Below are positions 2,467 to 6,716 of a stretch of DNA of 26,359 nucleotides, one piece after another. Origin of the DNA: Phycisphaerales bacterium (GTDB lineage Bacteria; Planctomycetota; Phycisphaerae; Phycisphaerales; UBA1924); contig JBGTSD010000035.1 of the NCBI GenBank assembly GCA_041940385.1, positions 1 to 26,359 of the forward strand, in the 5' to 3' direction. A model generated the notes under the pieces. The model was given only the letters and a program-made list of their open reading frames with translations. It ran no database searches and was not told the origin of the DNA. Within the stretch, counting starts at the first letter, position 1, and the number at the start of each line of letters is the position of its first letter. A program made the position numbers and the translations under genes.

Positions 2467-3450
2467 TTATTCGCACGGCTGGTTGAACCGTCCGAGCATG
2501 ACGTTCAGGTCGGCGAAGTCGATGCGCTCATCGAGGTTGAGGTCGGCGCCGGGGCAGAGTCCGGGCGTGGTGTTGAACGCGCCGAGGAGTTGATTGAGGT
2601 CGGCGAAGTTGACGTTGCCGTCGCCGTCGAGGTCGCCGCAGCCGGGCCGGAGGTTGCGAACGGTGAGGTTCTCGAAGTGCACGGTGACGGCGAGTGATTC
2701 GAGGTAGGCCATGAAGCGCCAGGCGTCGGTCCCGGTGAGATTGGTCATGAGCGTGCCGCTGTGGATCAGGAACCGCCCCTGTCCGTCGAGGTAGTTGATG
2801 TAGACGCGCATGTCGCGGTCGAGGTCGTGCTCGATGCTGAGGCGGAACCACTCGTTGACGGGCGTGGGGACGACGTCGCCGACGCTGGCGCCCGCGGGCG
2901 CCGAGCCGACGTAGCGCGCCTCCACGTATCCCGCGTTGGTCGCCACGCGGAAGGTGTCGACGAACTGGCCGTTGCCGATGTCGAAGCCGCCCCAGCCGAC
3001 GCGCGCCAGCGGCGCCTCGCCGACGTCCCACGTCCAGCCCGAGAGCAGCGACTGGACGAAGACCTCGGTCTCGTAGCGCACCAGCCCGTCGCTCGCCGGC
3101 GTCATGACGTCCGGGAACTCGACGCGCGCGCCGATGAAGGGGATGTTGCCCGCCGAGACATTCGTCACCCGACCGCGCAGCGTCTGGGATGCGTTGCCGC
3201 CGATGGGCTGGAGCGTGTTGTTCGAGATCGCGGCCCGATCGGGGATCGAGGGGAGCGCGAGCCAGGTGTTGACCCAGTTGTCATCGATGATCGTTGTCTG
3301 GTTGTGCAGTGGGGCGGGGAGCGGCTCGAGGGTCTCGAAATCGTCGATGAAGCCGACGACGGTTCCGCCGCAGGTGATGACGCCGGTCTGCGCGCAGAGG
3401 GGCGCGGCGCTCGCGGCGAGGATGGCGAACGCAAGGGTGCAACGTTGCAT
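2467..3450 (-). CDS. Secreted hypothetical protein with C-terminal dockerin-like module; paralog B
   Basis: ATG at 3450 is preceded by GGAGAC. Signal peptide MQRCTLAFAILAASAAPLCAQ. C-terminus reads GCGDLDGDGNVNFADLNQLLGAFN...ADLNLDERIDFADLNVMLGRFNQPCE. The central region aligns with paralogs A and C. Confidence 0.8.
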   Translation of the reverse strand: MQRCTLAFAILAASAAPLCAQTGVITCGGTVVGFIDDFETLEPLPAPLHNQTTIIDDNWVNTWLALPSIPDRAAISNNTLQPIGGNASQTLRGRVTNVSAGNIPFIGARVEFPDVMTPASDGLVRYETEVFVQSLLSGWTWDVGEAPLARVGWGGFDIGNGQFVDTFRVATNAGYVEARYVGSAPAGASVGDVVPTPVNEWFRLSIEHDLDRDMRVYINYLDGQGRFLIHSGTLMTNLTGTDAWRFMAYLESLAVTVHFENLTVRNLRPGCGDLDGDGNVNFADLNQLLGAFNTTPGLCPGADLNLDERIDFADLNVMLGRFNQPCE

Positions 3451-3476: not shown

Positions 3477-4547
3477 TCACTCGCACGGCTGATTGAACCG
3501 TCCGAGCAGGATGTTGAGGTCGGTGAAGTCCACGCGGAGATCGCCGTTGAAGTCTCCGCCGAGGCCGGGCCCCTGCGTGGAGTACTGGCTAATCGTGATG
3601 TTCAGATCATTGAAATCGACGTCGCCATCGCCGTCGGCGTCGCCGTCGCAGATCGAGAGCAGGCCGGAGACGAGCACGTCGTCCATGTAGTACGGCGCAC
3701 CGGTCACGAGGAACGAGCCGTTGACGCCCATGGAGTCGACGATCGTCGCGGGCGTATAGCCCTGCAACTCGCGGAGCAGGAATTCGCCCTCGCCGTTGAG
3801 GTAGTCCGCGTAGATGCGGATCACGCCCGCGCCGTCGCGCTCGAAGATGAGCCGCACCCACGAGCCGAACGGCGTGGGCGCGTAGTCGCCGATCTCGAAG
3901 CCCTGCGGCGCCGCGGTTTGGAACGACAGCGGCATGAAGTCGGGAATGCAGATCGAGCAAGGCATGTACCCGAGCGCCTGGAGGATCGGCATGGGGTCGC
4001 CGGGGAGCAGGCCGACGTCGTCGCACTCGAACGGGCTGCTGCCGTAGGAATTCAGGACACAAGGCCCGCCGAGCATCGCCCGGTCCATGATGAAGTTCTG
4101 CGAGATGGATCCGGGCTCGAGCGTCCACAGCGCCGTGATCTCGTTGGTGAAGACCGTTGCCTCGGCGCGGATGACGGTGGTCGCGTCGGCCATGAACCGG
4201 GCGCGCCGGGCGGGCGCATTGTGCGTGTAGAATTCCGAGCGGAAGCCGAAGAAGAAATCGCCCGCGGGCGGCGCCGTGATCGACTCCGCCGACGCTTTCC
4301 ACGACGTGTTCCCGGCGACGGGGTCGGTTGTGAAGTACGCCGTGCGGCCCGCGGCCGTTGTGCCGCGCCAGGTCGTCAGGCCGGTGATGCGGGAATCGCT
4401 CCAGAGGGGAGTGGTCAACTGTCCGTTGACCGCGCCCGCCGATGCGGACTCCATCGACTCCTTAACGGAGACAAAGACGGGGCCGGCTTGGGACAGGTTG
4501 GTCCAGAGCGCGAGGACGAGGGACGCCGCGAGCAACACTCGCTGCAT
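3477..4547 (-). CDS. Secreted hypothetical protein with C-terminal dockerin-like module; paralog C
   Basis: ATG at 4547 is preceded by GGGAGG. Signal peptide MQRVLLAASLVLALWTNLSQA. The N-terminal region ESASAGAVNGQLTTPLWSDSRITGLTTWRGTTAAGR matches paralog A closely. C-terminus reads CDGDADGDGDVDFNDLNITISQY...DFNGDLRVDFTDLNILLGRFNQPCE. Confidence 0.8.
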   Translation of the reverse strand: MQRVLLAASLVLALWTNLSQAGPVFVSVKESMESASAGAVNGQLTTPLWSDSRITGLTTWRGTTAAGRTAYFTTDPVAGNTSWKASAESITAPPAGDFFFGFRSEFYTHNAPARRARFMADATTVIRAEATVFTNEITALWTLEPGSISQNFIMDRAMLGGPCVLNSYGSSPFECDDVGLLPGDPMPILQALGYMPCSICIPDFMPLSFQTAAPQGFEIGDYAPTPFGSWVRLIFERDGAGVIRIYADYLNGEGEFLLRELQGYTPATIVDSMGVNGSFLVTGAPYYMDDVLVSGLLSICDGDADGDGDVDFNDLNITISQYSTQGPGLGGDFNGDLRVDFTDLNILLGRFNQPCE

Positions 4548-4693
4548 GGGAGGCCTCCCGAAATGCCTCACCCTCCAGAGCGGGCAGGCCCCCGACGCAC
4601 AGGGGCCGATCCAATCAAAATGACGCCCGGATGAGCCGCAGTCAAGAATGATCGACCGATATTCGTCTTGACGACCGGCGTCGGCCCCGGACA

Positions 4694-5359
4694 ATGGCCG
4701 CCATGAAGACCGCTTTGTCCGTGATCGCGATGTTCGGCCTTGCCTTGGGCGCTTCGGGCGCAAGCTCGATCGATCCTGCGCATAAGTTCGCGTGGGGCGA
4801 GAACATCGGCTGGACGAACTGGCGCGACGCCGACGGCGGCGACGCCGGCGCGCGCGTGGAACGCACGTTTCTGTCAGGATTCGTCTGGGGTGAGAACGTC
4901 GGGTGGATCAACCTCGGCGCGGGCCCCGCGAATTGCGCTCAGTACGCGAACACCACCGGCGCGGACTTCGGCGTCAACGTTCTGCCGAACGGCGACCTCG
5001 CCGGCCTCGCGTGGGGCGAGAACATCGGCTGGATCAACTTTGACACGGCGTCATCGCTGAGCGCGTTCGGGCAGCAGGCGCGCTTCGACGCGTCCGCCGG
5101 CCGCTTCCGCGGCTACGCGTGGGGCGAGAACGTCGGCTGGATCAACCTCGACGACAGCGCGCACTACGTCGGCTCGAGCATCCCGTGCCCCGCGGACGTG
5201 GACGGCGACGGCTTCATGGGATTCGCCGATCTCAACATCATCCTCTCCGCGTTCAACCAGATCGGTCCGTGTCTCGAGGGCGATCTCAACGGCGACGGCC
5301 AGGTCGGCTTCTCCGACCTGAACCTCGTGGTGTCGTTCTTCAATTCGAATTGCCCGTAA
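4694..5359 (+). CDS. Secreted repeat protein: four WGEN[IV]GW[IT]N repeats plus a C-terminal Cys-bracketed dockerin-like module
   Basis: Signal peptide MKTALSVIAMFGLALGASGA. Repeats AWGENIGWTNW / VWGENVGWINL / AWGENIGWINF / AWGENVGWINL at a spacing of about 32-42 aa. C-terminus reads CPADVDGDGFMGFADLNIILSAFNQ...DLNGDGQVGFSDLNLVVSFFNSNCP. Transcribed divergently from paralog C. Confidence 0.8.
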   Translation: MAAMKTALSVIAMFGLALGASGASSIDPAHKFAWGENIGWTNWRDADGGDAGARVERTFLSGFVWGENVGWINLGAGPANCAQYANTTGADFGVNVLPNGDLAGLAWGENIGWINFDTASSLSAFGQQARFDASAGRFRGYAWGENVGWINLDDSAHYVGSSIPCPADVDGDGFMGFADLNIILSAFNQIGPCLEGDLNGDGQVGFSDLNLVVSFFNSNCP

Positions 5360-5362
5360 CGC

Positions 5363-5908
5363 TCAGCGCTGCGGCGACTCGGCCGGCGCATCCTCGCTCG
5401 GCGCGTCCTCGATCGGCGCCGACTCGGGCTCCAGCGCGGGCGTCGGCTCGACGTCCGCGGGCGGTTCGTCCATGACTGGAGTCTCGGGCGGAGTTTCGGG
5501 GAGCGGTGGGGGCGGGAGCATGGCGCGGACCTCGCGGCCGCGATCGATCGCGCCCTGCGCATCGTCCGGCGAGGGCTCGAGCGTGAAGTGCCAGCGCACA
5601 TCGTTCTTGAAACGCACCGGCAGCGCCATCGCGACGAGATCGATGCCGGGCCACTCGTGCACCGGCGCGTCGGCCTTCTGGCTGGTCGCGAGCGGCTCGT
5701 AGCCGTCCTTGGAGAGGCGCACGTCGTACGTGCCGTACCACTCGAAGTCGACCTCGACGGGCGTGCGCCCGACGTCGACGTCGTTGAGCCGCACGATCGC
5801 ACCGGGCGGATCGGAGGTGATGTAGAGCCGGCGCTCGAGGCAGCCGGTCAGCGCGCCGAGGGCGCCGGCGGCGAAGGCGAGCGCGGGGATGGTGCGGGTG
5901 CGGCGCAT
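5363..5908 (-). CDS. PEGA-domain lipoprotein with a Pro/Glu-rich C-terminal tail
   Basis: From ATG 5908: MRRTRTIPALAFAAGALGALTGC (lipobox LTGC), then the PEGA signature PPGAIVRLNDVDVGRTPVEV, then a low-complexity PETPPETPVMDEPPADVEPTPALEPESAPIEDAPSEDAP tail. Lies 14 bp downstream of the lptB stop. Confidence 0.7.
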   Translation of the reverse strand: MRRTRTIPALAFAAGALGALTGCLERRLYITSDPPGAIVRLNDVDVGRTPVEVDFEWYGTYDVRLSKDGYEPLATSQKADAPVHEWPGIDLVAMALPVRFKNDVRWHFTLEPSPDDAQGAIDRGREVRAMLPPPPLPETPPETPVMDEPPADVEPTPALEPESAPIEDAPSEDAPAESPQR

Positions 5909-5921
5909 CGTGTGCAACAGA

Positions 5922-6716
5922 TTACCGCGGCGGCGCGGCGGAGGCCGCGGGGGACGCCGGCGCCGTCGAGACGGGGTGATCATCGAACTCATCGCCCCGG
6001 AACATGGACCCGATGTAGTGCCGCTTCACCAGCTCGTTGTTGATGAGCTCGCGCGGCGTGCCCTCGGTCAGCACCTTGCCCTCGTTGATGATGTACGCCC
6101 GGTCGCACACGCGCAGCGTCTGCTGCACGTTGTGGTCGGTGATCAGCACGGCGATGCCCATGGCCTCGAGCCGGCGGATCTCGTGCTGCAGGTCCTCGAC
6201 AGCGAGGGGATCGACGCCACTGAACGGCTCGTCGAGCAGGATCAGGCGCGGCTCGGTGACCAGCGCGCGGGCGATCTCGAGCTTGCGGCGTTCGCCGCCG
6301 GAGCAGGTGCGCGCCTGGTGCTTGGCCTTGTGCGTCAGGTGGAACTGCTCGAGCAGCTCCTGGCATCGCGCCCGCTGCTGGCGTCGTGAGAGGCGGGTGA
6401 CCTCGAGGATCGCGAGCAGGTTCTCCTCGACGGTGAGGCGGGTGAAGCAGGAGGGCTCCTGGCTCAGGTACCCCATGCCCATCCGGGCGCGCCGGTACAT
6501 CGGCAGGTTGGAGATGTCGCGCCCGTCGAAGGTCACGCGCCCGCCGTCGGCGTCGATCATGCCGATGGTGATGCGGAACGAGGTCGTCTTGCCCGCGCCG
6601 TTGCGCCCGAGCAGGCCGACGATCTCCGCCTTCTCCACGTGGAACGACACGCCGTCCACCACAGTGCGGCCGGCGTAACGCTTCACCAGGTTGTTGGCCT
6701 CCAGCAGGGGCGCCAT
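5922..6716 (-). CDS. lptB: LPS export ABC transporter ATP-binding protein LptB
   Basis: MAPLLEANNLVKRYAGRTVVDGVSF...GLLGRNGAGKTT (Walker A), GYLSQE, ABC signature CSGGERRKLEIARAL, Walker B LLDEPFSGVD, H-loop TDHN. Length is 264 aa. Confidence 0.9.
   Translation of the reverse strand: MAPLLEANNLVKRYAGRTVVDGVSFHVEKAEIVGLLGRNGAGKTTSFRITIGMIDADGGRVTFDGRDISNLPMYRRARMGMGYLSQEPSCFTRLTVEENLLAILEVTRLSRRQQRARCQELLEQFHLTHKAKHQARTCSGGERRKLEIARALVTEPRLILLDEPFSGVDPLAVEDLQHEIRRLEAMGIAVLITDHNVQQTLRVCDRAYIINEGKVLTEGTPRELINNELVKRHYIGSMFRGDEFDDHPVSTAPASPAASAAPPR

Follow-up and report, generated by a model that had tools for sequence, protein, structure and literature searches.

What does a small, putatively exported protein with four copies of one tryptophan-containing motif do, and do these copies belong to a domain that has already been described? 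The question is raised by a gene at positions 4694..5359 (+) of a 26,359-nucleotide stretch of DNA from a Phycisphaerales bacterium (contig JBGTSD010000035.1; this whole stretch is hereafter called the window), which encodes a predicted barrel domain and a dockerin. Our analysis indicates that this domain, named here the WGEN-GW barrel after its repeated core, is a distinct extracellular domain family, undescribed in the libraries searched and resembling known barrels at the level of fold class only. As to function, we lean towards a two-module exported surface protein in which a four-hairpin binding barrel is combined with a tether of the GC-type dockerin kind.

Four ancient repeats in a small putative surface protein

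The open reading frame (ORF) at 4694..5359, identified from the ORF list and the sequence, ends with the stop codon at 5357-5359 and encodes 221 amino acids (aa). Its layout, a putative signal peptide followed by four repeats and a Cys-bracketed dockerin, agrees with the architecture proposed in the initial annotation of this DNA. Public gene calls place the start at the second Met (4703), giving a 218-aa protein (P0001) that has been called in identical form on 6 public contigs. The sole sigma-70-like promoter match of the region, at 4668-4695 (+) (TTGACG, 16 nt, GACAAT), overlaps the first ATG (4694); if this match is real, translation would start from the second Met with a very short leader. 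The N-terminus (~aa 1-24, 4694..4765 (+), MAAMKTALSVIAMFGLALGASGAS) is hydrophobic, varies across orthologues and appears in the AlphaFold2 model as a helical segment with a low predicted local distance difference test (pLDDT) score. Read from the sequence and with its cleavage site inferred, it is probably a Sec signal peptide.

The WGEN tetrapeptide occurs at aa 34, 65, 107 and 143. All four cores are thus present as initially described, and their measured spacings of 31, 42 and 36 aa widen the annotated range of 32-42 aa to 31-42 aa. The degenerate DNA pattern for W-G-E-N-[IV]-G-W, TGGGGNGARAAYRTNGGNTGG, has 4 matches in the window, all of them inside the gene, and none in 100 shuffles. Of the 54 orthologues aligned, 52 retain all four copies, and each copy has its own flanking signature: ..IDP.HKFAW.EN.GW.NWRDA for copy 1, TFLSGF.W.ENVGWINLGDG for copy 2, GDL.GLAWGEN.GWINFDT for copy 3 and RFRGYAWGEN.GWINLDD for copy 4. 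The retention of these copy-specific flanks indicates that the duplication is ancient and has been maintained by selection. It is next to inconceivable that the repeat is a product of chance or low complexity, or of a recent local duplication without function: the high G+C content of the genome is all that speaks for such an origin, whereas the shuffles predict 0 matches against the 4 observed, the flanks are conserved separately for each of the four positions among the orthologues, and thousands of homologues are spread across phyla.

The family logo of the repeat unit reads L-S-G-[YF]-A-W-[GSA]-E-N-[IV]-G-W-I-N-[FL]. Within it, the first Trp (position 0), Asn at +3, Gly at +5 and the second Trp at +6 are conserved at 95-99%, and Glu at +2 at 92%. 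The role of the invariant Trp and Gly residues is probably structural: each hairpin would contain a cross-strand Trp pair, and the glycines would form kinks ahead of the aromatic residues. Some members have Gln, Ala or Thr in place of the core Glu, as in the AWSQNAGW of proteins rich in TSP3 modules, and a catalytic or metal-binding role of the four Glu residues was considered unlikely in view of these replacements.

The repeats occur in sets of four and are predicted to fold into a small barrel

A 31-column profile of single repeat units, searched against 1.84 billion representative proteins with clustering at 50% identity, matched 4380 clusters at E<=1e-3 and 2067 clusters at E<=1e-10. The repeat is thus conserved far beyond a single protein, a restriction that the initial annotation had allowed for. 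Nearly all of the matches listed have 4, 8, 12 or 16 matched stretches per protein, with few exceptions of 3 or 7. Mapping with a local hidden Markov model (HMM) resolved these stretches into contiguous sets of four, each of ~120-140 aa, of which the first mostly lies directly after the signal peptide and any additional sets are either adjacent or separated from it by other modules. These data indicate that the four repeats are one domain that occurs in obligate sets of four and are not the free tandem units that they had been taken for.

AlphaFold2 prediction on the 54-sequence alignment gave a mean pLDDT of 88.6 and a predicted template modelling score (pTM) of 0.79, and the strand pattern was reproduced in an independent run limited to the domain, with 27 diverse members (pLDDT 81.6, pTM 0.76). 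In the models each core is a beta-hairpin, in which a strand ending in ...A-W-G is followed by a short E-N-x turn and a strand G-W-I-N. The predicted domain (~135 aa) spans aa 25-162 (4766..5179 (+)) and opens with a conserved (S/N)IDP motif. Its hairpin cores, all on the + strand, are AWGENIGWTNW (core 1, aa 33-43, 4790..4822; model strands E26-35 and E39-42), VWGENVGWINL (core 2, aa 64-74, 4883..4915; E59-66 and E70-75), AWGENIGWINF (core 3, aa 106-116, 5009..5041; E101-108 and E112-115) and AWGENVGWINL (core 4, aa 142-152, 5117..5149; E141-144 and E148-151). The four hairpins would close into a small up-and-down beta-barrel, and thus one compact domain, with barrel closure inferred from the models. 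In the family logo, G/A/G and I/F/L alternate onto one face of the strands and W/W/Y/N onto the other, and this alternation hints that the Trp pairs may face outwards from the barrel.

The initial annotation had likened the repeats to those of a beta-propeller or beta-helix, a guess with which the two four-hairpin models do not agree. Propeller matches in Foldseek were noise, and beta-propeller blades or coils of a beta-helix solenoid were rejected in the absence of a structural match. Foldseek returned no significant match in the PDB (best E 2.3), and the predicted fold is best classed as a 'small meander barrel' without a close solved relative.

The modelled fold does resemble membrane-embedded, 8-stranded outer-membrane barrels of the OmpA/OmpX/PagL type, yet that the domain itself is such a barrel is highly improbable. 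The strands assigned by DSSP on the models have 3-10 residues, mostly 3-8, and are rich in N, D, E, S and T; neither membrane-spanning strands with a lipid-facing belt nor a C-terminal beta-signal was found, and what comes after the barrel is instead a dockerin or transmembrane sorting tag. In addition, the domain occurs 2-4 times per chain in long soluble multidomain proteins, either adjacent or with Ig-like or TSP3 modules between, and the match to avidins and to soluble barrels designed de novo is about as good.

The barrel is absent from the family libraries searched and widespread in environmental bacteria

The initial annotation had not recognized the repeat as a named family, and our searches bear this out. 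Neither for the window protein nor for 30 tabulated relatives is the repeat covered by a Pfam or NCBIfam model, save marginal ChW matches in five of the relatives. No relative of the barrel was found in the PDB by sequence, by domain profile or by single-repeat profile, the motif strings were not found in papers of the searched literature library, and no barrel homologue was found in phage or plasmid sequences. Choline-binding repeats (CW_binding_1, PF01473) and other GW-type wall-binding repeats were not listed for the window protein even at E values up to 10. A weak similarity was observed between aa 104-187, around the third repeat (..AWGENIGWINFD...GRFRG), and the N-terminal domain of PnpD, the large subunit of hydroquinone dioxygenase (PF18191, E 1.8; PDB 4zxa_W, E 1.2 with the domain profile), which is probably due to chance.

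The closest homologues, ~215-240 aa in length, are encoded by metagenome-assembled genomes (MAGs) of Phycisphaerales and Phycisphaeraceae, and 2886 matches were obtained at 90% clustering. Among GTDB species representatives, at least 557 stretches encode the barrel; the best 80 of these all come from Planctomycetota or unclassified MAGs and include Tepidisphaera and MAGs labelled Phycisphaera mikurensis. Some GTDB genomes carry two or three barrel copies, which are dispersed in the MAGs JAKSDK01, CAZAEQ01, JADJMV01 and CALKYH01. Two barrel-dockerin genes were also seen per genome at three loci, lying next to each other in L011 (1-1311) and L029 (2196-3594) and ~1.8 kb apart in L055 (2881-6066). 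The protein closest to that of the window, with 78% identity, is encoded at L011.

Beyond these proteins, a compact subfamily of 160-210 aa occurs in Deltaproteobacteria MAGs and in the cultured Sedimentisphaera salicampi, in which one of three elements comes after the barrel: an IPTL-CTERM tag (PF18203), an ordinary dockerin or a degenerate dockerin-like tail. Larger proteins join 1-4 barrels to Big_9, cadherin-like, PKD, He_PIG, TSP3, MopE and OmpL47-type modules as well as to Peptidase_C13, Laminin_G_3 and galactose-binding-like modules. Among these larger proteins is a 3269-aa Desulfobacterales protein (P0141) that NCBI has named after DUF1566. Outside Phycisphaerae, the barrel was also observed with adhesin-type Lcl_C/DUF1566 (PF07603) domains, encoded either by a neighbouring gene at two loci (L092, 4718-5979; L095, 5158-8159) or within the same protein (P0141). 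Names given to barrel proteins in databases are 'hypothetical', 'GC-type dockerin domain-anchored', 'EF-hand', 'DUF1566', 'MopE-related' and 'PD40'. With no family model, structure or literature in the sources searched, these proteins are thus annotated as hypothetical or after a neighbouring domain.

A Cys-bracketed dockerin and other interchangeable anchors follow the barrel

The C-terminal module (aa 165-220, 5186..5353 (+)) consists of two D-x-[DN]-G-D-G loop-helix segments placed between two Cys residues, each Cys being at least 90% conserved among the orthologues. The segments, DVDGDGFMGFADLNIILSAF and DLNGDGQVGFSDLNLVVSFF, have the form of two tandem EF-hand-like units of ~22 residues, each a calcium loop plus helix, and the helices were placed at residues 177-185 and 206-214 in the AlphaFold2 model. 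The module superposes on solved dockerins and thus has the dockerin fold, and several orthologues carry a precomputed PF00404 match. A literature search for 'GC-type dockerin' returned nothing relevant; the 'planctosome' paper treats other cohesin/dockerin proteins (PMC6461901).

The anchor at the C-terminus of the barrel varies among relatives. Besides the GC-type dockerin, we found an ordinary dockerin (P0373) and the IPTL-CTERM sorting tag, of which PF18203 was matched on 8 proteins of the compact subfamily (P0310 and 7 others; tag sequence ..VPTLTEWGMIIMSVLLGGSGIYLLKRR). The occurrence of a dockerin or an IPTL-CTERM tag behind the same barrel indicates that the C-terminal anchor is interchangeable, and an N-terminal barrel combined with interchangeable anchors suggests that the barrel is the displayed functional end of the protein rather than its anchor. 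Cell-wall anchoring by the barrel itself is less likely, because separate anchoring modules follow it.

Barrel genes are frequently preceded by a gene for a secreted beta-helix protein

In 5 of 7 individually examined contexts, a gene for a secreted parallel beta-helix protein of 354-456 aa lies ~20-190 bp upstream of the barrel gene on the same strand. These neighbours match PF13229, NosD and TIGR03804, are 30-54% identical to each other and share an N-terminal G-P-[LI]-[DN]-P-P-[AS]-G-P...EVEPR motif; no relative of this family was found in the PDB by sequence. With an HMM built from these neighbours and applied to the Phycisphaerae GTDB loci, a beta-helix homologue was found directly upstream and on the same strand at 52 of the 74 assessable loci and anywhere at the locus in 59 of 80, often in 2-3 tandem copies. 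About 30% of Phycisphaerae loci, the window copy included, have no beta-helix neighbour.

The pairing is also seen in distant barrel proteins. In S. salicampi a beta-helix gene precedes the compact barrel gene (E 1e-45), two beta-helix genes lie upstream of the gene for a 746-aa three-barrel TSP3 protein (E ~3e-21 and 3e-22), and in a Deltaproteobacteria MAG, Lcl_C and Pel9A-like beta-helix genes are clustered with the barrel gene on the same strand. The beta-helix genes that we located are at 4610-5980 in L001, 4760-5968 in L002, 2894-3958 in L008, 2816-3976 in L009, 764-3814 in L010, 4917-5966 in L091 and 3650-5956 in L096. Genes of this family nearly always lie immediately upstream of one for a WGEN-GW barrel. 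A dockerin-like C-terminus was detected in only 1 of 81 beta-helix ORFs, and 50 of the 81 end in Tyr, commonly in the form [NFW]-A-N-[FY]-x-Y, a conserved tail that looks like a recognition or sorting signal.

The MAG CALKYH01 carries both a window-like copy (78% identity) and another copy with a beta-helix gene upstream, which suggests two paralogous lineages, with only ~600 bp of upstream sequence at hand for the window-like copy.

Proposed function of the barrel protein

In the function that we favour, the protein would be exported by Sec, the Cys-bracketed GC-type dockerin would presumably tether it to a partner on the cell surface, and the barrel would be the displayed working part, acting as a binding module. 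In most relatives the barrel would act together with the anchor-less secreted beta-helix (CASH/NosD-like) protein encoded directly upstream. Two roles can be envisaged for it. The one that we rank as the most likely is that the barrel binds the polymer, probably a glycan, that is the substrate of its CASH-type beta-helix partner; the other is that it binds the beta-helix protein itself and holds it at the surface. The lectin-like or cell-wall-binding role that had initially been put forward for the repeats is a plausible proposal.

The second role can be stated as an explanation of its own, in which the barrel is a docking module and not a glycan binder: it would capture the upstream beta-helix protein, for example by its [NFW]-A-N-[FY]-x-Y tail, and the anchor would fix the complex to the surface. 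The tight same-strand pairing of the genes holds across very divergent barrel proteins, anchors are nearly absent from the beta-helix partners, many of these end in an AN[FY]x[Y] tail, and 1-3 beta-helix paralogues may precede one barrel gene, all of which such an adaptor would account for. Its generality is limited by the Phycisphaerae loci without a beta-helix neighbour, the window copy among them, and by barrels that are part of large adhesin-like proteins or lie next to Lcl_C genes, without an adjacent beta-helix gene, and we regard it as a rather improbable alternative.

Several results also weigh against the favoured reading of a dockerin-tethered binding barrel. The module at the C-terminus scores below the curated cutoffs of both dockerin models, reaching 17.1 bits against a cutoff of 22.9 for Dockerin_1 (PF00404) and 21.7 bits against 29 for dockerin_GC (NF041540), the latter matched end to end (positions 1-67 of 67), and no cohesin-like gene was found in the scanned parts of the window. 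Since the invariant Trp and Gly residues are probably structural and the Glu is replaceable, no obvious ligand-binding signature can be named. Finally, no beta-helix homologue was found in the window, where the barrel gene is flanked by three unrelated dockerin paralogues instead, and the partner model may therefore not apply to this paralogue.

In a broader and speculative version, which we regard as rather improbable, the barrel and the upstream beta-helix protein would make up an undescribed two-component cell-surface system of PVC-group bacteria, with the barrel as a docking receptor of a new kind that captures the beta-helix protein, perhaps by its AN[FY]xY tail, and holds it on interchangeable anchors (GC-dockerin, IPTL-CTERM or TSP3 stalks), and the barrel would be a natural soluble beta-barrel that still shows its origin by four-fold amplification of one Trp-zipper-like hairpin.

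The barrel is a compact extracellular domain found in thousands of clusters from environmental bacteria, Planctomycetota and Desulfobacterota among them, and defining its family would yield a usable annotation. The conservation of its pairing with secreted beta-helix proteins suggests a surface system, which may act on glycans, in a phylum that is poorly understood and important in polysaccharide turnover. Moreover, the barrel/beta-helix gene pair is carried by the cultured S. salicampi, which opens this system to experiment. The barrel would also be of interest to protein evolution and design, as a clear example from nature of four recognisable copies of one hairpin making up a small barrel. 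These findings do not overturn current understanding; they add a well-founded new domain, for whose function there is a good lead.

Genes around the barrel gene in the window

The barrel gene stands alone in the window, divergent from three dockerin paralogues and convergent with a PEGA-domain gene. The paralogues are three consecutive genes for secreted proteins of 353, 327 and 356 aa, at 1394-2455, 2467-3450 and 3477-4547 (all on the - strand). Their products are 31-48% identical to each other and have no Pfam match; their N-terminal domains are uncharacterised, and each ends in the Cys-bracketed GC-type dockerin of the barrel protein (..DFNGDxRVDFxDLNILLGRFNQPCE). The window thus holds a cluster of four genes for dockerin-bearing secreted proteins. 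On the other side, the PEGA-domain gene (5363-5908 (-)) converges on the barrel gene with 3 bp between the stop codons, and no terminator-like hairpin was found between the two; a gene for an LptB-like ABC ATPase (5922-6716 (-)) comes next.

Comparison with known systems

ChW (Clostridial hydrophobic W) repeats (PF07538, SMART SM00728) are the known repeats to which the WGEN-GW repeat comes closest. Both are extracellular, both contain a [QE]-N-[IV]-G-W hairpin after an aromatic residue, both occur in repeat groups of fixed number, and neither has a known ligand or, by sequence search, a solved structure. ChW differs in being found mainly in Firmicutes, Actinobacteria and endolysins, and its similarity to the barrel extends over 11-14 columns only. 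We considered whether the barrel consists of divergent ChW-type cell-wall/envelope-binding repeats that themselves stick the protein to a cell-envelope polymer. One lactococcal phage endolysin has a C-terminus with a ChW annotation by which proteins are anchored to Gram-positive cells (PMC5817068, PMC6700490), and an association of ChW domains in triplets has been suggested (PMC5817068).

At the level of the motif the resemblance is clear, as both have the [QE]N[IV]GW hairpin with its conserved GW dipeptide, extended in full to aromatic-x-x-[HW]-x-[QE]-N-[IV]-G-W. Four of 10 relatives score 22-34 bits for ChW, among them P0419 (34 bits), P0422 (26 bits) and P0416 (23.5 bits), and an hhalign comparison of unit against unit aligned 14 columns around xNxGW (P 1.4e-4, probability 53%). 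The window protein itself reaches only 8.0 bits (E 3.5) against the gathering score of 22 bits, and the matches in the relatives are confined to a single partial stretch, profile positions 3-26 of 35, in only one of the four repeats. When the barrel domain was compared by hhalign with genuine ChW triplets taken from two phage records, the probability was 0.65% over 11 columns. The units are also organized differently: the second half of the ~50-aa ChW unit (AGTTG..LRLEAI) is absent, and sets of four units of 30-42 aa are found here against the suggested triplets, with separate anchors already following the barrel. Membership of the ChW family was accordingly rejected at the domain level by the comparison with real ChW repeats, and a ChW-type wall-binding role is unlikely; the hairpin motif common to both may reflect very remote ancestry or convergence.

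Other 8-stranded up-and-down barrels that we compared are OmpA, OprF-N, NspA and PagL; the soluble barrels of hemophilin, NHBA, TbpB and fHbp; the avidins; and the de novo designs b10 and BB1. They have 3-13% sequence identity to the WGEN-GW barrel, no shared motif and no Foldseek match, and the WGEN-GW barrel differs from them in being soluble and modular. To our knowledge, and as judged from their sequences, none of them has an obvious four-fold repeat in its sequence.

Compared with dockerin-borne cargo proteins (cellulosomal type I; NF041540), the window protein has the same duplicated calcium-loop/helix arrangement that superposes on solved dockerins. It differs in that its module is Cys-bracketed with HMM scores below the cutoffs, its cargo is a non-enzymatic barrel, and its host is a planctomycete with no cellulosome context.

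Tryptophan-zipper (trpzip) peptides, such as SWTWENGKWTWK, are products of design, 12-16 residues long and with a turn of two residues, N-G. In the WGEN-GW repeat the spacing between the two Trp residues is one residue longer (W-G-E-N-x-G-W) and the hairpins lie within a domain. What the two have in common, and what we take as a lead only, is a cross-strand Trp/Trp pair around a short turn that contains E-N.
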